From positions 4,433-68,432 of the forward strand of contig UQVZ01000015.1 of NCBI GenBank assembly GCA_900544675.1: 64,000 nt of DNA, written 5' to 3'. The stretch comes from an uncultured Bacteroides sp. GTDB lineage: Bacteria > Bacteroidota > Bacteroidia > Bacteroidales > Bacteroidaceae. Every line of letters begins with the position of its first letter. Positions within the stretch are counted from its first letter, which is position 1. Shown here in pieces: positions 4,263-24,077 of the stretch. The notes below the pieces were generated by a model, which made no database searches, was not told the DNA's origin, and was given only the letters and a program-made list of their open reading frames with translations. Position numbers and translations under genes: made by a program.

Positions 4263-4336
4263 GGTTCCTTGGATGAGTGGCTTAGTCAGCGGTCTGCAAA
4301 ACCGTGCACGGCGGTTCGAATCCGCCAGGGACCTCA
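4263..4336 (+). tRNA. tRNA-Cys (anticodon GCA)
   Basis: Cloverleaf: acceptor ggttcct/agggacc with one G-U pair, anticodon stem gcggt/accgt, loop cTGCAaa, T-arm ggcgg-TTCGAAT-ccgcc, discriminator U73 (a Cys identity element). CCA is not encoded. Confidence 0.8.
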
Positions 4337-13051: not shown

Positions 13052-13798
13052 TTAATTCTTAATCGGCAAACGTTTCCATAACCAGCGTGGAATCATTCGC
13101 CAAAACAATACAAGCAAACGGTATCGCCAATCGATAACCACTACACGTTGCTTGCGATGGATGGCGCGGACTATATGCCGTGCCACCTTTTCGGGATGCA
13201 TCAGCAAAGGATAATGTTTCCCATCGTTCAGCAAGTCGGTCTTGACAAAACCGGGACGAATATCCGTAAAGCAGACATGCGTTTTTCCATGCATCCGGGC
13301 AAGCTGTTCAAGCGCATCCAGATAGGTATTCTGAAAACGTTTAGTCGCCGAATAGGCAGGAGCAATCCCCAATCCCTTTGTTCCGGCAATGGAACTGATA
13401 ACGGCAATGTGCCCTTTCCCTTGCCGGATAAAATAACGGAACGCCACTCCTACGGCACGGATAAACCCGGTCACATTGGTTTCGGCAGTATCAACCTCAA
13501 CATCTGACGACAAATCAAAATTCTGATGTCCGATACCCGAACAATGCACATACAAGTCCATCCCTCCTGTTTCTGCCATCAAAGCTTCCAGCTCGGACTC
13601 GGCATTCTCTTTCCGGATATCAAGCACCCGATAGCAGATGCGGGAAGGAGACTGACGCTGGAAAGCTTTCAACAAGCCTTCCCTGCGTCCAGCTATCCCC
13701 AGCATCCAGCCTTCTTTCAACAATAAGCGGGCGATTTCATACCCGATACCGGAAGTTGCTCCGACAATAATGGCACGTTTCTGCATGGTTACATTCAT
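13052..13798 (-). CDS. Short-chain dehydrogenase/reductase (SDR) family oxidoreductase
   Basis: Rossmann TGxxxGIG motif (KRAIIVGATSGIGYEIA) and the SDR catalytic S...YxxxK region (YSATK). Start set at the internal ATG MNVTMQK. Confidence 0.8.
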   Translation of the reverse strand: MNVTMQKRAIIVGATSGIGYEIARLLLKEGWMLGIAGRREGLLKAFQRQSPSRICYRVLDIRKENAESELEALMAETGGMDLYVHCSGIGHQNFDLSSDVEVDTAETNVTGFIRAVGVAFRYFIRQGKGHIAVISSIAGTKGLGIAPAYSATKRFQNTYLDALEQLARMHGKTHVCFTDIRPGFVKTDLLNDGKHYPLLMHPEKVARHIVRAIHRKQRVVVIDWRYRLLVLFWRMIPRWLWKRLPIKN

Positions 13799-13811: not shown

Positions 13812-16800
13812 TCAATGATTGGTCCGTACTTCATATACAAAGGTTTCAGCAAGCGGGACATGGGCTGTCCTTCGGTTATAATAAAACAATCCATCCAATG
13901 GCATACACTCGTTGAGCGGAACAAGTGCCGGAGTCAAGCGGGTGCAAAAAGCCTGATACGAATGATTATTGGCACACTCTCCGGTATCATCCCGGTAAAA
14001 CACAGCATATTGATTGAGCGGGTAAGCGGCTATCAAGCGATTCAATTGCATAGCCAACTGATGTGCTTCACGGGGAGAAATGCGGTCGAACAGACTGGAT
14101 ACATTAAAGATTACCAGTTCCGACACGACTGCATGTGTTTTCCAAAACGTATGGGGAATATCTTCTACTTGTGGATAGAAATTAGCCTGAACATGCCGGT
14201 ATGCCTCCGACCGGAACAGACTACGGGCTACCTGCCTCATTTCTTCTACCGGATTGACGCACACATACGTGCAATCGAGATGTGGTAAACGCCGGCATGC
14301 ATCTGCAAAAGCGATGCCTGAAGCTCCGCTCTCGTATGCCCAATCGCAAAAGACAACCCGTCCCGACGCATTGCGTATGGATGAAAACAGCCAGCTTCCT
14401 ATCACTTCGTAGAAAGCACGGGCAGCACTATAACTACGGCGCATATAATAAAAGGTGTGGAACTGCACCCGGTGTGCCAACTCATCGGTCTGCCTGAAAT
14501 CGTATCGTCCATAAGCTATCTGCTCACGGATACGGGCATCATCGGTGACTGTATTGGTTCCGGCAGGAAGCAGGTCTGCCACCAAAGCATCGAACGCCTG
14601 GGCAAACGTAGGGGCAAGCGGATAATTATCCGAACACAACTCCCATCCCGGCTCCGCATCGGGCAAGTCAAAGTCGCCCCGGCAAAAGCGGTCAAACGGG
14701 ACATGGATATAACCGTTATGGATACGGATGTATTCCATCAGCTTATAAAATGTAAGATTGGCTCCCAGCACGTGCGGATTGCCTACCAGGAAAAGCTGCT
14801 TGCGGGCACGGGTAATGGCTACATTCAGCTTGCGGTCAATCAACGAGTCTCCTTCACGGAAGGTATTGGCGGTCAGGAAATTCAGTTGGTTAAAATCACG
14901 CACGGTAAACGAATAGATAATCACATCACGTTGGCTTCCCTGATAACGCTCGACGGTATCGATGGAAATCTCCTCAAGTGCCGGAATGCCCAAAGCAGCA
15001 ATCTCACGCCGAATCATGGCAATCTGGTTCCGATAAGGCACAATAACACCGACCGTCTTGCCGGCATCGAAATCTTTTCCGGCAAAACGATGGATACGAC
15101 GGAGCAAGGCGGCAACAATGCGTGCTTCTTCCAGATTACTTTTATCAGAATGCTGTATGTCGGAAGGCGTTTCGGAAGCAATGAATACCATCCGCCGGTG
15201 CAACATCAAGCGGTCGAGATTGTCTTCCGGCTCTACGGAAGTGTATGGCAAAGTTTCTTGCTGGTGCGGAAGCGGTACTGGTTCCAATTGCTCACGAAGG
15301 TAAAACGCATGGTCGGGAAACTCGGCAATGGCGGGATGCATGCGTCCTTGTTTCTGAAGCACGCTACGGAACTCCGGCTTGCTTTGCCTGTACAATCGTT
15401 CGAAAAGCGAATTGCGGCAATCCTCCAGTCCGATACCGAGCAATAAAGGGTCGGTCACCCGGGCTTCTTCCTCGCCCTGCAAGGCTATGGCAGGCAATTG
15501 CTTGTAATCGCCTACCAGAATGAACTTGCCGATGGCATGCTTTCCCTGATGCTGTGCCGAAAGGATACCGACCAGGTCAGGTTCCAATATTTGCGAAGCC
15601 TCATCAATGATGGCGAGGGTGAAAGATTTCAACTCAAACAGGTAAGGACGGCTGCTGATGGCGGTTGTAGTCCCGACAAAGATACGGGTACGAAGTATCT
15701 TGGCACGGATATCTGCCAGCTTGGGGCACTCTGCCAGGCTATTCTTCAACAGATAAGGCACAAAACGCTTGTCGCAAGCCAACTCGTTGCCGATACGGAT
15801 AAAGGGATGGCACTCGGCAATGCCCGAACTGACCAGCATGTTGCAGATTTCATCAACGGCACGGTTCGTGTACGACAGGAGCAACAAGGTGCTATCGGGC
15901 TCGGTCAACGCCTCTTCTACCATATAACGCAAGGCACACGAGGTCTTGCCCGTACCCGGAGGCCCGACCAGCAGAAAATAGTCATCGCATTGTTTTTCTT
16001 TCAATATCAAGTCATCAAACCTTCCGTACGAACCGTTCAGCGTGCGCGAAGTGTCACGCGTCGGGATACGCTTTCCCAACAACAAGGCTTTGCGCTCGGC
16101 AGAAGCAGAAAGAAACGTATAAAGTCCACGGAAAGCATTGGAAGCCGAAATGTCCGAATAATCGTGCTCAATGGCAAAAGTGTCTGTATCCGAACCGATA
16201 AGGTCCGGATTCTGTTGCCCGTTGCGCAATTGCACAAGTATCCGTTCGGGATGTATTTCCATCAAGCTTCCTTTCATCAGGATATGACGGCGCACATCGG
16301 GCAAATCATGATAAGCATACAGAATCACGATATCCCCGGTACGGAAATTGGGCAGGAAATCATCGCCTTGCCTCGGAACGTTCAGTTCGATGAGGTCATA
16401 TCCCTTGCCGGGTGCACTTTGGCGGCGGGAAGCAATCTGCAAGCCCAGCAAGATATTGCCTGCCTCAATCTTTTCGGCAAGCGGAGTATGCCACAATCCG
16501 GCAAAGCCGCGCGAAGAATCAGTGTTTCCTCCGGTCTTGCCCAGCAATTGCTCTTTTGCCACAAAGGTGAAGAATCGCCGGAAATAAGCTTGCTCCAGCG
16601 GGTCGCCTTCTTTGAGGGGAAGAATCAAACGGCTCAACTCGGGTTCCTGATAACGGGTCCAGAGTGTGCCGTAGTCTTTCTTTTCATTCAATGTCTCTAC
16701 ATCTAACTGGTCGATAATGGCATCTATGTGTCCGTTCGCCAATGCCACTTCACCGGTCACAATGTAATTGCGCAAACGGATGCACTCGCGGAACAAGTTC

Positions 16801-18068
16801 TCCGAGAAATGTTCCAGCATCAATCCGTCCTGATACTTCGAGTAAAGCAAGAGGGTCTGCACATCGTCGGCACCCAGCCCGAAGTTGTACATCAGCACGC
16901 CCTGATAGAGCATCATCTGCACGAAATGGTCTTCTTTATGGCGATGGTTATATTCATCCCGCTTGCCCGACTTCTGCTCGATAAGCACCTTCAAGTCTTT
17001 TTGCAACAAGTCGGCACGCCCTTGAATCCCCAGACTCTCGCAGATGAAAGAAGCCTCCAGAAGGGTATGCTTCCGGTCGAAATGTTCCAGGTTATGCGGC
17101 AGGATATCGTGTACGAACGAACGGATGTTCATCATCTGCGTCTGTGCCAGGGAATGGAAATTATCCGGAAGCTCGCACGTACAGAACTCCAATGCTGATG
17201 AAGCGAAAAATTTCTTCATCGTATGGGCATAGGTGACGGGAGCGTTTTCCTCCTCATTGATGTAATCATCCAGGAACCGCCCGGCAAGGTTTCCCAATAA
17301 GATGTGATAAGTGTTTGCCTTCGGCTTGATTTTATGAATGAAATAGTTGAGCGGATGATGGCCGTACTCGCGGAAACAGGCAGCCAGCGCACTGATGTCA
17401 ATCAGATAATCGGGATGGACCACCACCAGTTTGGGCACATACTCGTGATGTTCGTTGATGCGCACATCCAACAGGTTCAATTGCACATTCTCGGCAAGCA
17501 GGTCACGCAAGTATGTCAAGTCGCCATCATATCCCCCTTGCATATAGTCGATAACGATAAACGGGTCTTCCTCGTTATCGGTCGCGGCATAGATTTTTTC
17601 TTCGGTCCAACTGGAAACAACCGCACGCACATAGGGCACATGCTTCAATAAGGAGTCATGATAAGGGCGGTTCTGATGGGGAAGTTCTGTCAAGAGCGAC
17701 ACCGGTATGTCCTCGCCAAAAGCCAAGGATACAAACCGGCACAAGGCGCGCAAATCAGCGAGGTATGTCTCTTTATCGGCTGATTCGCCATTTCCCATAG
17801 CCTTCTTGCCATTACGACGCATGGTCTGGACGGCAAAACGGTCGGAAGGGGTCATGCCTTTCTCCTTGCATACATAGTCCAACCGCGAGAACAAGTTGGA
17901 GAACGAAAGAGTGACCTCACGCGTCAGCTCATAACACGCTTCTTCCAGTACCTTATATAAAGCCGCATATTTAGCCGGTATATTTTCGGGAGCCAACGGC
18001 GGCTTGCGGTGTATCTCTTCGATTCGCCGGAACAAATCGAATGCCTGAAGTTCGATGCGTTCCGTCAT
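13812..18068 (-). CDS. RecB/Cas4-like PD-(D/E)XK nuclease fused to Upf1-like SF1 helicase (Dna2/Nhi-like), plus unknown C-terminal domain
   Basis: 1418 aa. Nuclease motifs are GRADLL (II), LIEQKSGK (ExK, III) and QMMLYQ (QxxxY) at about aa 340-400. Helicase motifs are VGPPGTGKTS (Walker A), ILVGDYKQLP and LNVAITRARKQLFLVGN (AAA_11/AAA_12). A 380-aa C-terminal region has no recognisable motifs. Confidence 0.85.
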   Translation of the reverse strand: MTERIELQAFDLFRRIEEIHRKPPLAPENIPAKYAALYKVLEEACYELTREVTLSFSNLFSRLDYVCKEKGMTPSDRFAVQTMRRNGKKAMGNGESADKETYLADLRALCRFVSLAFGEDIPVSLLTELPHQNRPYHDSLLKHVPYVRAVVSSWTEEKIYAATDNEEDPFIVIDYMQGGYDGDLTYLRDLLAENVQLNLLDVRINEHHEYVPKLVVVHPDYLIDISALAACFREYGHHPLNYFIHKIKPKANTYHILLGNLAGRFLDDYINEEENAPVTYAHTMKKFFASSALEFCTCELPDNFHSLAQTQMMNIRSFVHDILPHNLEHFDRKHTLLEASFICESLGIQGRADLLQKDLKVLIEQKSGKRDEYNHRHKEDHFVQMMLYQGVLMYNFGLGADDVQTLLLYSKYQDGLMLEHFSENLFRECIRLRNYIVTGEVALANGHIDAIIDQLDVETLNEKKDYGTLWTRYQEPELSRLILPLKEGDPLEQAYFRRFFTFVAKEQLLGKTGGNTDSSRGFAGLWHTPLAEKIEAGNILLGLQIASRRQSAPGKGYDLIELNVPRQGDDFLPNFRTGDIVILYAYHDLPDVRRHILMKGSLMEIHPERILVQLRNGQQNPDLIGSDTDTFAIEHDYSDISASNAFRGLYTFLSASAERKALLLGKRIPTRDTSRTLNGSYGRFDDLILKEKQCDDYFLLVGPPGTGKTSCALRYMVEEALTEPDSTLLLLSYTNRAVDEICNMLVSSGIAECHPFIRIGNELACDKRFVPYLLKNSLAECPKLADIRAKILRTRIFVGTTTAISSRPYLFELKSFTLAIIDEASQILEPDLVGILSAQHQGKHAIGKFILVGDYKQLPAIALQGEEEARVTDPLLLGIGLEDCRNSLFERLYRQSKPEFRSVLQKQGRMHPAIAEFPDHAFYLREQLEPVPLPHQQETLPYTSVEPEDNLDRLMLHRRMVFIASETPSDIQHSDKSNLEEARIVAALLRRIHRFAGKDFDAGKTVGVIVPYRNQIAMIRREIAALGIPALEEISIDTVERYQGSQRDVIIYSFTVRDFNQLNFLTANTFREGDSLIDRKLNVAITRARKQLFLVGNPHVLGANLTFYKLMEYIRIHNGYIHVPFDRFCRGDFDLPDAEPGWELCSDNYPLAPTFAQAFDALVADLLPAGTNTVTDDARIREQIAYGRYDFRQTDELAHRVQFHTFYYMRRSYSAARAFYEVIGSWLFSSIRNASGRVVFCDWAYESGASGIAFADACRRLPHLDCTYVCVNPVEEMRQVARSLFRSEAYRHVQANFYPQVEDIPHTFWKTHAVVSELVIFNVSSLFDRISPREAHQLAMQLNRLIAAYPLNQYAVFYRDDTGECANNHSYQAFCTRLTPALVPLNECMPLDGLFYYNRRTAHVPLAETFVYEVRTNH

Positions 18069-18070
18069 GC

Positions 18071-18874
18071 TCAGATGCCTTCACTCGGAATGTGTTGCAC
18101 GCAATAAGCCTTCTCCAATGCCGGATAAAGCGAACGGTACGTCTCGGTCACGTCTTGCCACAACACACGTGCCGGTATGATATCCGTACGGCTTCCGATA
18201 GGAACGGACGCTGCAGAAGCCACCTCTAGGATGTAATTGTACGTACTTCCGTCGGTTAGTTCGATATGTATCTCGCTCTGTTGAAGCGCTATCTTCTCCG
18301 TAAAGATGCCATGCAACGTATTGCCCGATGAAGCTGAAGGGTAAATCGTCACAATACCCGACGTGCCTCCTTTATCGGTATAAGTAAATACATACTTGCC
18401 TCCAGCCTGTACCGGTGCATTGGCTTCAATATCCGTACGGATGGCGAGGGTTTGGCTTTGTGTCAGGTCTGCCCCATATACCACTCCCTCAACATCTCCT
18501 ATCTCGTAGATTGTTTCGGGATAAGCTACGGAAACTTGCAACGTGTATTTATTCCATTCATGGTCAGTAATAAGCAGTTCCGCATCGCCCAGCCCTACCG
18601 GAATCACGGTCAGTTCATCTCCGTTATAACGGTAATCAATCACCGCCGTATCCGGATTGTTGATGAGATACATACCGTCACCTCCCGAAATGTGAAAGGT
18701 AACTCCGGCACTGTAAGGGCTCATCACCAAAACCTCATCCGTAAAACTTATGCTATTACCATCCAAAGATACTGCCAGCGAAATGGGAGGATAATCATCC
18801 TTGCACGAAGCAAGCGAAACGATGCCTGCCAGCAGAACTGTATATAATAAACTTTTCAATAGGGTCTTTTTCAT
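18071..18874 (-). CDS. Hypothetical beta-rich surface lipoprotein
   Basis: MKKTLLKSLLYTVLLAGIVSLASC lipobox. The ORF-track start at 18892 is a TTG, so I used the in-frame ATG at 18874. Its stop lies 2 nt from the helicase ATG. Confidence 0.6.
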   Translation of the reverse strand: MKKTLLKSLLYTVLLAGIVSLASCKDDYPPISLAVSLDGNSISFTDEVLVMSPYSAGVTFHISGGDGMYLINNPDTAVIDYRYNGDELTVIPVGLGDAELLITDHEWNKYTLQVSVAYPETIYEIGDVEGVVYGADLTQSQTLAIRTDIEANAPVQAGGKYVFTYTDKGGTSGIVTIYPSASSGNTLHGIFTEKIALQQSEIHIELTDGSTYNYILEVASAASVPIGSRTDIIPARVLWQDVTETYRSLYPALEKAYCVQHIPSEGI

Positions 18875-18907
18875 ATTTTCTCCTTGTTTCAAACATAATC
18901 AATGAGA

Positions 18908-18915
18908 CAAAGATA
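18908..18915 (-). promoter_or_regulatory. -7 box TAtcTTTG upstream of the lipoprotein / nuclease-helicase operon
   Basis: The reverse complement of caaagata is in the 72-bp gap between the copA stop and the lipoprotein start. Confidence 0.4.
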
Positions 18916-21514: not shown

Positions 21515-21771
21515 AACTTCTGAGTTTTTATCTGATTCGTATTTATTTTTCTTGATACAAAGTTAGCAAGCTTGCGCCATATTCCTTTATATTATTATGG
21601 ATATAATTTATATTTCAGCCTAAAACAAGAGGACGAGTCATCCCCCTTATCACGTCCTTCCATTTAACTTTGGTTTAAAATTTAAGTAAAAATAGAAAAA
21701 AAGCACACAAAATCTGACATATATTAGCAAAAATATAAAGAAGTGATGCGTGGCTTCTATGAAAATTTAAT

Positions 21772-22956: not shown

Positions 22957-23325
22957 TTATATCAATTTAGGGACAAATATCAACATCCCGACCACGACCG
23001 AAGCCATCGCCAGAAGCAGGACGGCACCTGCAGCTAAATCCTTCGTGCGCTTGATAGCCTCATCATACTCTTCCGATACGCGGTCGGCAAGGGCTTCGAG
23101 GGCGGAATTGACCGCCTCCGCCGCCAGCACCATGCCAATGCACAGGCAAACCGCTATCCATTCCGTGACAGAAATCTCCAGCAAGACACCTGCCACCAGC
23201 ACGCAAACCGTGATAAAGCAATGTATCCGCGCATTCGGCTCATGGCGCACCAGCAGGTAAATGCCGTGGAAAGCATACCTGAAGCTCTTTATCCGCTTAC
23301 GGAACGTAAACCCGTCGTTTTTCAT
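22957..23325 (-). CDS. dgkA: Diacylglycerol / undecaprenol kinase (DgkA family)
   Basis: Three TM helices and a DgkA-like sequence (...EAVNSALEALADRVS...GAVLLLAMASVVVG). I chose the ATG that overlaps the xth stop (ATGA). Confidence 0.7.
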   Translation of the reverse strand: MKNDGFTFRKRIKSFRYAFHGIYLLVRHEPNARIHCFITVCVLVAGVLLEISVTEWIAVCLCIGMVLAAEAVNSALEALADRVSEEYDEAIKRTKDLAAGAVLLLAMASVVVGMLIFVPKLI

Positions 23326-24077
23326 AACTTCACGCAAACTTCTACCGGGCAATGGTCGGAACCGAATATCTCGGTATGGATGGTCGCGCTCTCCAGCTTA
23401 TCGGCAAGGCGGGCAGAGGTCAGGAAATAATCGATGCGCCACCCCGCGTTCTTCTCGCGTGCCTTGAAGCGGTACGACCACCACGAATAAATGCCCGTCT
23501 GGTCGGGATAGAAATAGCGGAACGTGTCGATAAACCCGGCATCCAGCAATGTCTGGAACTTCTCGCGCTCCTGGTCGGTAAAGCCCGCATTCATCCGGTT
23601 GGTCTTCGGATTCTTCAGGTCTATTTCTTTATGCGCCACATTCAGGTCGCCGCACACCAGTACCGGCTTCTTGGCATCCAGTTCCAACAGGTATTGGCGG
23701 AAAGCGTCTTCCCACGTCATGCGGTAATCCAGGCGTTTCAGCCCGTCTTGCGAGTTGGGGGTATAGACCGTCACCAGATAGAAATCTTCCATCTCCAGGG
23801 TGATGACCCGCCCTTCGCGGTCGTGCTCGTCGATACCCAAACCATAGCTCACGTTCAAAGGCTGATGGCGGGTGAATATGGCTGTCCCCGAATAGCCTTT
23901 CTTCTCGGCATAGTTCCAATACGAAGTATAGCCGTCGAAAGCCAAGTCGAGTTGCCCTGCCTGCATCTTAGTCTCTTGCAGGCAGAAAAAGTCTGCGTCC
24001 AATTGCAGGAATGCTTCGCGGAATCCTTTGTCGCAACAAGCGCGAAGACCGTTTACGTTCCAAGATATGAATTTCAT
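23322..24077 (-). CDS. xth: Exodeoxyribonuclease III
   Basis: MKFISWNVNGLRA..., FCLQETK, WWSYRF, GSDHCPV motifs of Xth/APE1-family endonucleases. Confidence 0.9.
   Translation of the reverse strand: MKFISWNVNGLRACCDKGFREAFLQLDADFFCLQETKMQAGQLDLAFDGYTSYWNYAEKKGYSGTAIFTRHQPLNVSYGLGIDEHDREGRVITLEMEDFYLVTVYTPNSQDGLKRLDYRMTWEDAFRQYLLELDAKKPVLVCGDLNVAHKEIDLKNPKTNRMNAGFTDQEREKFQTLLDAGFIDTFRYFYPDQTGIYSWWSYRFKAREKNAGWRIDYFLTSARLADKLESATIHTEIFGSDHCPVEVCVKL

Follow-up and report, generated by a model that had tools for sequence, protein, structure and literature searches.

A Dna2-like nuclease-helicase without an iron-sulphur cluster in gut Bacteroidales, probably a housekeeping enzyme of DNA metabolism

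Does a bacterial protein that joins a nuclease to a helicase serve to destroy foreign nucleic acid, or to maintain the DNA of its own cell? The question is raised by a gene in a contig of an uncultured Bacteroides sp. (NCBI GenBank assembly GCA_900544675.1, contig UQVZ01000015.1, positions 4,433 to 68,432 of the forward strand), a stretch of 64,000 nucleotides (nt) referred to below as the window. The gene encodes a single polypeptide of 1418 amino acids (aa) and closely follows a lipoprotein gene; a sequence-only reading of the locus had proposed a candidate defence module, similar to the anti-phage enzyme Nhi and coupled to the lipoprotein. Our analysis leads to a different answer: the protein is probably a cytoplasmic Dna2-like nuclease-helicase that lacks an iron-sulphur (Fe-S) cluster and acts in housekeeping DNA metabolism. 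A literature search found no published description of this nuclease-helicase family, whose members are labelled in the sources only as 'AAA domain-containing protein', 'AAA family ATPase' or 'ATP-dependent helicase'.

The open reading frame (ORF) and the domains of its product, which include a superfamily 1B (SF1B) helicase core and a fold typical of S-adenosylmethionine (SAM)-dependent methyltransferases, are as follows.

13812..18068, minus strand: nuclease-helicase ORF, 1418 aa, with the stop codon inside this range
17679..18068, minus strand: N-terminal helical bundle, aa 1-130 (model helices 9-21, 27-48, 59-69, 74-91 and 99-117)
17409..17657, minus strand: OB-like five-stranded beta-barrel, aa 138-220, preceding the nuclease as in Dna2
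16803..17408, minus strand: PD-(D/E)XK nuclease core of RecB/Cas4 type, aa 221-422
16161..16802, minus strand: helical stalk and beta-barrel (the '1B' module of Upf1 and Dna2), aa 423-636
14709..15998, minus strand: SF1B Upf1-like helicase core, aa 691-1120, with Walker A K708, DEAS at 822-825 and motifs III, V and VI
13815..14708, minus strand: class I SAM-methyltransferase-fold domain, aa 1121-1418, with Rsm22 and METTL17 as closest folds

A motif search of the translation located all six of the motifs that the sequence-only reading had quoted:

aa 350-355: GRADLL, nuclease motif region
aa 362-369: LIEQKSGK, nuclease motif region
aa 384-389: QMMLYQ, nuclease QxxxY
aa 701-710: VGPPGTGKTS, Walker A
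aa 852-859: VGDYKQLP, helicase motif
aa 1081-1097: LNVAITRARKQLFLVGN, the sixth motif

The nuclease core has E338 as motif I, D353 as motif II, E364-x-K366 as motif III and Q384/Y388 as QxxxY. Together with R351 and G368, these residues are invariant in an alignment of 114 sequences that extends down to 29% identity, so the motifs are not a chance match, and the combination of a RecB-family nuclease with an Upf1-like helicase stands as first described. The window protein matched the Pfam Dna2 family (PF08696) only below threshold (aa 208-326, 14.5-16 bits against a cutoff of 22.4), while among 16 orthologues from Phocaeicola, Prevotella, Paraprevotella and Alloprevotella nine matched it at E ≤ 1 (best E 2.6e-5) and one matched PDDEXK_1. 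A profile of aa 1-690 found no match among PDB sequences even at E ≤ 10, and the likeness to Dna2 emerged only by fold comparison. The structure of aa 1-690 predicted from the 114-sequence alignment (predicted local distance difference test (pLDDT) 91, predicted template modelling score (pTM) 0.85) matched Dna2 in Foldseek with an E of 2.7e-14 and a template modelling (TM) score of 0.52 over 663 columns; the next match stood at 2e-4. The model resolves into a helical bundle (1-130), a barrel (142-217), an alpha/beta nuclease (~221-420), a set of helices (423-536) and a second barrel (539-635), and the nearest folds of the nuclease are those of the DNA nucleases AdnAB, Cas4, RecE, MGME1 and Exo5.

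Fold comparison, whose output gives no aligned ranges, also returned HEPN-like matches, which probably come from the N-terminal bundle. R84 of the bundle is invariant in the 114-sequence alignment. A catalytic HEPN RNase at the N-terminus was considered and rejected, the conserved Rx4-6H motif being absent.

Dna2, Bad, AddB and Cas4 nucleases are defined by an Fe-S staple of four cysteines, three of which lie in a CX2CX5C motif after QxxxY (PMC7430649, PMC4716839). This motif was not found after QxxxY in the window protein, where the only cysteine, C429, is not conserved. Across the 114 members there is no invariant cysteine at all, and only C45, C67 and C343 reach at least 90%. A clade-specific Fe-S site built from C231, C296, C298 and C343 was rejected, since C296 and C298 are unconserved outside Phocaeicola.

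The helicase motor was recognised directly by sequence. Pfam placed AAA_12 (E 2.4e-32) and AAA_11 (E 3.8e-19) at aa ~695-1100, and the best match to the sequence of a solved structure was the helicase half of mouse Dna2 (E 9e-21), behind which Sen1, SETX, Upf1 and IGHMBP2 ranked among the strong matches. Matches to NCBIfam models (PLuB_AAA and the IGHMBP2 family) were confined to the motor and fell far below their cutoffs; nothing was found in the literature on 'PLuB', the name of an NCBIfam helicase model.

Dna2 is built in the order OB domain, PD-(D/E)XK nuclease, stalk and beta-barrel, SF1B helicase 1A/2A (PMC4716839). The window protein shares this order with the mouse enzyme (PDB 5ean/5eax) and, with the Foldseek and helicase matches given above, the Dna2 architecture that had been proposed for it is confirmed. 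It differs from Dna2 in adding an N-terminal bundle of ~130 aa and a C-terminal methyltransferase-fold domain, in lacking the four-cysteine Fe-S cluster, in having, as a bacterial protein, no RPA partner, and in an identity of only 13-15%. A bacterial comparison is offered by Bad of Geobacillus stearothermophilus, a single chain in which a RecB-type nuclease at the N-terminus is joined to an SF1B 5'->3' motor, and for which single-stranded DNA-dependent ATPase, single-stranded DNA endonuclease and 5'->3' translocase activities have been described (PMC7430649). Bad contains a four-cysteine Fe-S cluster, is described as rare and sporadic, and is encoded beside a Type III-like methyltransferase gene (PMC7430649). 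Measured against this published description, the window family has no cluster, is widespread in Bacteroidales and, in some of its branches, carries a methyltransferase-fold domain fused in cis. Architecture and motifs are thus those of Dna2 and Bad while the Fe-S staple is missing; we class the protein as one that would work in the manner of Dna2, but not as belonging strictly to the Fe-S nuclease-helicases.

How the gene is inherited bears directly on the choice between defence and housekeeping. It is the middle member of a tight, co-directional string of three genes, the outer two being:

18071..18874, minus strand: lipoprotein gene, 267 aa, with its ATG at 18874 and its stop at 18071-18073
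13052..13798, minus strand: short-chain dehydrogenase (SDR) gene, 248 aa, with a probable ATG at 13798

The SDR gene begins 13 nt 3' of the helicase stop, which extends to three genes what had been taken for a two-gene operon. A scan of species-representative genomes found 73 loci, 52 of them at the same chromosomal place in the window's own Phocaeicola clade (P. plebeius, coprocola, coprophilus, barnesiae, intestinalis, faecicola and others; 55-83% identity). The most constant neighbour is the SDR gene, present 3' of the helicase in 45 of these 52 loci, mostly within 30 nt. Helicase identity tracks that of the SDR protein (rho 0.74) and of copA (rho 0.60), and mean identities to the window proteins are alike: 66% for the N-terminal part, 74% for the helicase core, 66% for SDR and 70% for copA. 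Compared across the genomes of the clade, as had been proposed in order to see whether the interval from copA to SDR holds a variable island, the gene shows a fixed place in 52 species and co-divergence with its neighbours. In metagenomes anchored on the SDR gene, a comparison between lineages and not a measure of strain-level presence or absence, the helicase was found in 37 of the 38 contigs closest by SDR identity, and contigs that lacked it belonged to other lineages, with SDR identity of 65% or less. The copA-SDR interval is lineage-specific. Two such contigs (L117:2446-10744 and L123:5016-10726), with SDR identity of 64-65%, have no copA, lipoprotein or helicase and show rearranged neighbourhoods: in the first MaoC is kept, beside a pseudouridine synthase, a BspA-type leucine-rich-repeat protein, AraC and MatE, and in the second the neighbours are a pseudouridine synthase, an RNA methyltransferase, EamA and FKBP.

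The surroundings are housekeeping genes. Pfam assigned housekeeping functions throughout the 64-kilobase (kb) window (DUF5686, GT2, BamE-like, SDR, copA, MaoC and an xth-like EEP nuclease, with further genes for OMP, LysM, asnB, gltBD, ABC exporters and proB) and found no defence or mobile genes in it, none of the ten flanking ORFs was matched by a PADLOC defence model, and the GC content is unremarkable. Queried with the N-terminal part, plasmid records yielded only three matches, all chromosome pieces by size or gene content, and phage records yielded none. The family is common in Bacteroidales, occurring in Phocaeicola, Bacteroides, Prevotella, Alloprevotella and Paraprevotella. We conclude that the helicase gene is stably and vertically inherited on the chromosome among housekeeping genes.

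Because of this stable vertical inheritance, evolutionary rates like those of its neighbours and the housekeeping context, the enzyme probably acts on DNA ends, flaps or stalled forks. On the model of mouse Dna2 and Bad, single-stranded DNA would enter by a free end, pass the nuclease and the barrel and reach the SF1B motor; the motor would translocate 5'->3' and the nuclease would cut the strand endonucleolytically. Ends, flaps and intermediates of stalled forks would be processed in this way. What the sequences and models show is the motifs with their invariance, the predicted folds in their order, the synteny and the co-divergence; catalysis, a DNA substrate, the role in the cell and the arrangement as an operon are inferred.

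Several observations weigh against this assignment. The one exception among the 38 contigs (L106:1-1100) retains only the last ~25 helicase codons ('...FVYEIRMN*') before the SDR gene, the rest being filled by an AAA ATPase ORF (GPRGVGKTTLM...) on the opposite strand; this natural disruption means that the helicase gene is not strictly essential. A crude neighbour-joining tree of the family is incongruent with the species tree: the window's clade joins Prevotella, and the form present in P. massiliensis and B. finegoldii is 33% identical and linked to tatC. Domains turn over within the family, with a NERD domain gained and the methyltransferase domain lost. One of 2.9 million viral contigs also matched, in a scan limited to two peptide patterns. 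Incongruent trees, domain turnover and a phage contig are typical of defence and mobile genes as well. The missing Fe-S staple, moreover, may mean that the geometry of the tunnel differs from that in Dna2, Bad, AddB and Cas4. Finally, Upf1-like motors are often RNA helicases and, with the closest folds of the C-terminal domain being rRNA-associated, the substrate could be RNA. The phage-borne member (L075:5977-9333, in a 52.7-kb IMG/VR contig from a putative phage) is a protein of 1118 aa whose N-terminal part is 39% identical; its neighbours encode a Dam-type methylase, thymidylate synthase and reverse transcriptase, and several nearby ORFs have no Pfam match.

These observations bear first on the proposal that the protein is a single-chain anti-phage or anti-plasmid enzyme which, in the manner of Nhi, recognises foreign replication intermediates and degrades them with its nuclease and SF1B helicase. 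In Nhi (SERP2475), too, one chain joins a PD-(D/E)XK nuclease at its N-terminus to an SF1B helicase, and the enzyme acts against phage (10.1101/776245). Fewer than 1% of genomes have a homologue of Nhi; the homologues are often plasmid-borne, and for 72% of them a defence gene lies no more than 20 genes away (10.1101/776245). Besides this shared architecture, PADLOC returned 23 hits to the window protein, among them MkoA (E 5.6e-53, aa 790-1115), MkoC (E 2.3e-24) and DpdJ; the tree, the phage-borne member, the possible loss of the gene and relatives with a gained NERD domain or with a methyltransferase domain would all suit a defence gene too. Every one of the defence-model matches, however, is confined to the helicase core (aa ~700-1115). 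None of the 23 is named Nhi, the presence of an Nhi model in this PADLOC version being unconfirmed, and DUF2075 (PF09848), the helicase type of Nhi, which is Dda-like whereas that of the window protein is Upf1-like, gave no match at E ≤ 0.1. The likeness to MkoA and MkoC of Mokosh is limited to the Upf1-like motor; the N- and C-terminal domains are unrelated, and Pfam detected no Mokosh PLD nuclease domain or partner gene in the protein or its neighbours. In profile, in helicase type and in distribution the family thus departs from Nhi: instead of patchy, plasmid-borne occurrence beside defence genes, it shows a fixed place in 52 species, co-divergence with its neighbours, no true plasmid copy and, in the pattern-limited scan, a single viral contig, and its N-terminal part and helicase core are conserved like copA or above it. 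Taken together, these results make the defence role with which the locus had been credited unlikely.

What, then, does the C-terminal domain contribute? It had been described as some 380 aa of unknown kind; the non-helicase part is nearer 300 aa (aa ~1121-1418), and its AlphaFold model (pLDDT 87.5) has the seven-strand topology of a class I methyltransferase. The closest folds, Rsm22 and METTL17, are only 9-11% identical to it, and in the window protein the domain is fused to a helicase. Unlike them, the window's clade has replaced the glycine-rich SAM loop and the acidic residue of beta2: the loop is non-canonical (D1242..E1246-S-G-A-S-G) and the beta2 acidic residue has become Asn, so that the domain reads FCDWAYESGASG ('DWAYES', FCDWAYESGASGIAF) and CVN at the SAM-loop and beta2-end positions. 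Most of 26 aligned distant relatives have the canonical motif I, FIDFGCGPLTSG (hhDhGCGPxTxGhAF; 'DhGCGP'), and GID at the end of beta2. Within the Phocaeicola clade the replaced loop is itself invariant. Pfam gave no methyltransferase match for the window protein and weak ones for its relatives.

The domain is rare and readily lost. Among 1.84 billion representative proteins searched, no more than 49 relatives emerged; apart from short fragments and the leucine-rich-repeat protein P0276 (2628 aa), they are the C-termini of proteins of 1420-1680 aa. The large relatives are 22-40% identical to the window protein in the N-terminal part, 40-52% in the core and 21-30% in the C-terminal domain. Besides a Dna2-like nuclease, a helicase and a methyltransferase domain whose SAM motif is intact, the two that were scanned with Pfam, P0250 (1621 aa) and P0272 (1680 aa), have an extra N-terminal NERD (nuclease-related) domain. 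A homologue search from a divergent C-terminal domain (L032) gave no matches, and the alignment of the domain comprises 20 sequences. All forms from Prevotella, Alloprevotella, Paraprevotella and Bacteroides (1100-1170 aa) lack it. In the Candidatus Phocaeicola merdavium lineage the helicase is 1137 aa long, the whole domain having been cleanly deleted, with the SDR gene ~55 nt further on. Short forms of this type lie at:

L021:8001-11414
L030:3926-7339
L081:6531-9890

Where the domain is kept in the clade, its sequence has changed much more quickly than that of the remaining protein (mean identity 45% against 65-74%). The canonical SAM-binding residues, as read from the sequences, are lost in the Phocaeicola clade, and there the domain would be a pseudo-enzyme or a regulatory appendage.

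Its resemblance to the ribosome-assembly factors Rsm22 and METTL17, taken with the strong matches of the motor to Sen1, Upf1, IGHMBP2 and SETX, raises the idea of an RNA-directed surveillance or processing enzyme, assembled from an Upf1-like RNA helicase, a nuclease and an RNA-binding module like an rRNA methyltransferase. We consider this improbable: Dna2, a DNA enzyme, heads the matches of both halves of the protein, and for aa 1-690 its lead amounts to ten orders of magnitude; the nearest folds of the nuclease are DNA nucleases; the HEPN-like bundle has no Rx4-6H motif; and the methyltransferase-like domain is dispensable, since most clades lack it and Ca. P. merdavium has lost it by deletion.

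There remains the lipoprotein. Its gene ends just before the helicase starts, in the junction TGA-GC-ATG, exactly the 2-nt gap first reported. The 267-aa product begins with a signal peptide and the lipobox LASC (MKKTLLKSLLYTVLLAGIVSLASC-KDD, Cys24 followed by KDD), continues with an N-terminal domain that is immunoglobulin (Ig)-like by a sub-threshold match, and ends in a beta-rich domain. No match above threshold was found in Pfam, the PDB or PADLOC, and a profile of the lipoprotein compared with the PDB and Pfam returned only the sub-threshold Ig-like similarity. Cys24 is invariant among 17 orthologues, whose consensus is SCxDDDY. An acidic stretch after the lipid-modified cysteine is a surface-export signal in Bacteroidota. 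The start of the lipoprotein resembles this signal, so the protein is probably exposed at the surface; if the signal applies, two membranes separate it from the cytoplasmic enzyme.

Two promoter-like elements precede the gene:

18908..18915, minus strand: TATCTTTG, resembling a -7 promoter element of Bacteroides type, separated by 33 nt from the lipoprotein ATG
18890-18897, minus strand: TATGTTTG, a second copy of TAnnTTTG 5' of the lipoprotein gene

The first is the -7 box with which the lipoprotein gene had been credited. Its motif is over-represented in the window (57 copies against 35.9 +/- 5.1 expected from shuffling), and TATCTTTG is a candidate promoter. No copy lies directly 5' of the helicase start or the SDR start; many copies elsewhere stand just 5' of gene starts, as at 21558-21565 before copA. 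The copA terminator after which the box was said to lie could not be verified, no terminator-like hairpin being detected between the copA stop and the lipoprotein gene. The three genes, lipoprotein, helicase and SDR, are probably transcribed as one unit from the promoter-like element 5' of the first.

Such linkage might be taken to mean that the lipoprotein and the nuclease-helicase form a two-component module, an envelope sensor translationally coupled to a cytoplasmic effector. In its favour, the lipoprotein gene lies 5' of the helicase in 38 of 50 clade loci, in 24 of these with a gap of at most 15 nt as in the window, and other Bacteroidales have a different lipoprotein, of SLT/MltF type, directly 5'. 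The helicase is nevertheless kept without the lipoprotein in the other 12 of the 50 loci (the P. coprocola group and others) and in all other clades, including those of Prevotella and Bacteroides, where unrelated genes precede it (SLT/MltF-like transglycosylase, UPF0227, GH20, tatA-tatC). The lipoprotein evolves about twice as fast (mean identity to the window protein 36%, against 65-74% for the helicase), its identity is weakly correlated with that of the helicase (rho 0.39), and the SDR gene is linked just as tightly. With the two membranes that may lie between the partners, these findings leave a sensor-effector module very improbable. Because it is restricted to one clade, dispensable for retention of the helicase and fast-evolving, the lipoprotein is best explained as a clade-specific operon neighbour rather than the functional partner for which it had been taken. 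The SDR is likewise best regarded as an operon neighbour and not as a functional partner of the helicase.

Other features of these neighbourhoods may be recorded. An SLT/MltF-like gene stands directly 5' in Alloprevotella, Paraprevotella and other Bacteroidales (L065, L070, L072, L073, L078:6604-7992 and L080:4692-6068); three of these genes have a lipoprotein-type signal, and the spacing varies between an overlap of 4 nt and a gap of 55 nt. In B. finegoldii (L074) the helicase follows tatA-tatC, and P. massiliensis (L076) has the same neighbourhood. One tRNA gene (4263-4334) is the sole Rfam match at gathering threshold in the window. An exonuclease III-like gene of the EEP family, a DNA repair type, lies at 23322-24077, ~5 kb from the helicase, and an Ogt-type methyltransferase gene lies just 3' of the family gene in L080; both offer a weak, circumstantial link to DNA repair.

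A broader possibility is that the family descends from an old bacterial single chain that combined a nuclease of Dna2 type with an SF1B motor and a SAM-methyltransferase, then still active, and could couple a methyl mark to the degradation of nucleic acid. The family may, besides, stand closer to eukaryotic Dna2 than any other widespread prokaryotic one, with an architecture that has no need of an Fe-S cluster. We put this forward as speculation, with little expectation that it is right. If true, the ancestral enzyme could have been a self/non-self device resembling restriction-modification, or a repair enzyme guided by a mark, and the Phocaeicola form would be its domesticated version, bearing a dead methyltransferase module.

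The Dna2-like reading that we favour has consequences of its own. Dna2-type enzymes were long regarded as eukaryotic and, to our knowledge, Bad is the one characterised bacterial example. Here the full Dna2 domain order, without the Fe-S cluster, is common among dominant gut bacteria, and the locus cautions against taking every nuclease-helicase fusion for phage defence. The family may provide a tractable model of what the Fe-S cluster contributes to Dna2, of the part that such an enzyme plays beside AddAB when gut anaerobes process DNA ends and flaps, and of what role a methyltransferase module plays when it is fused to a nuclease-helicase.

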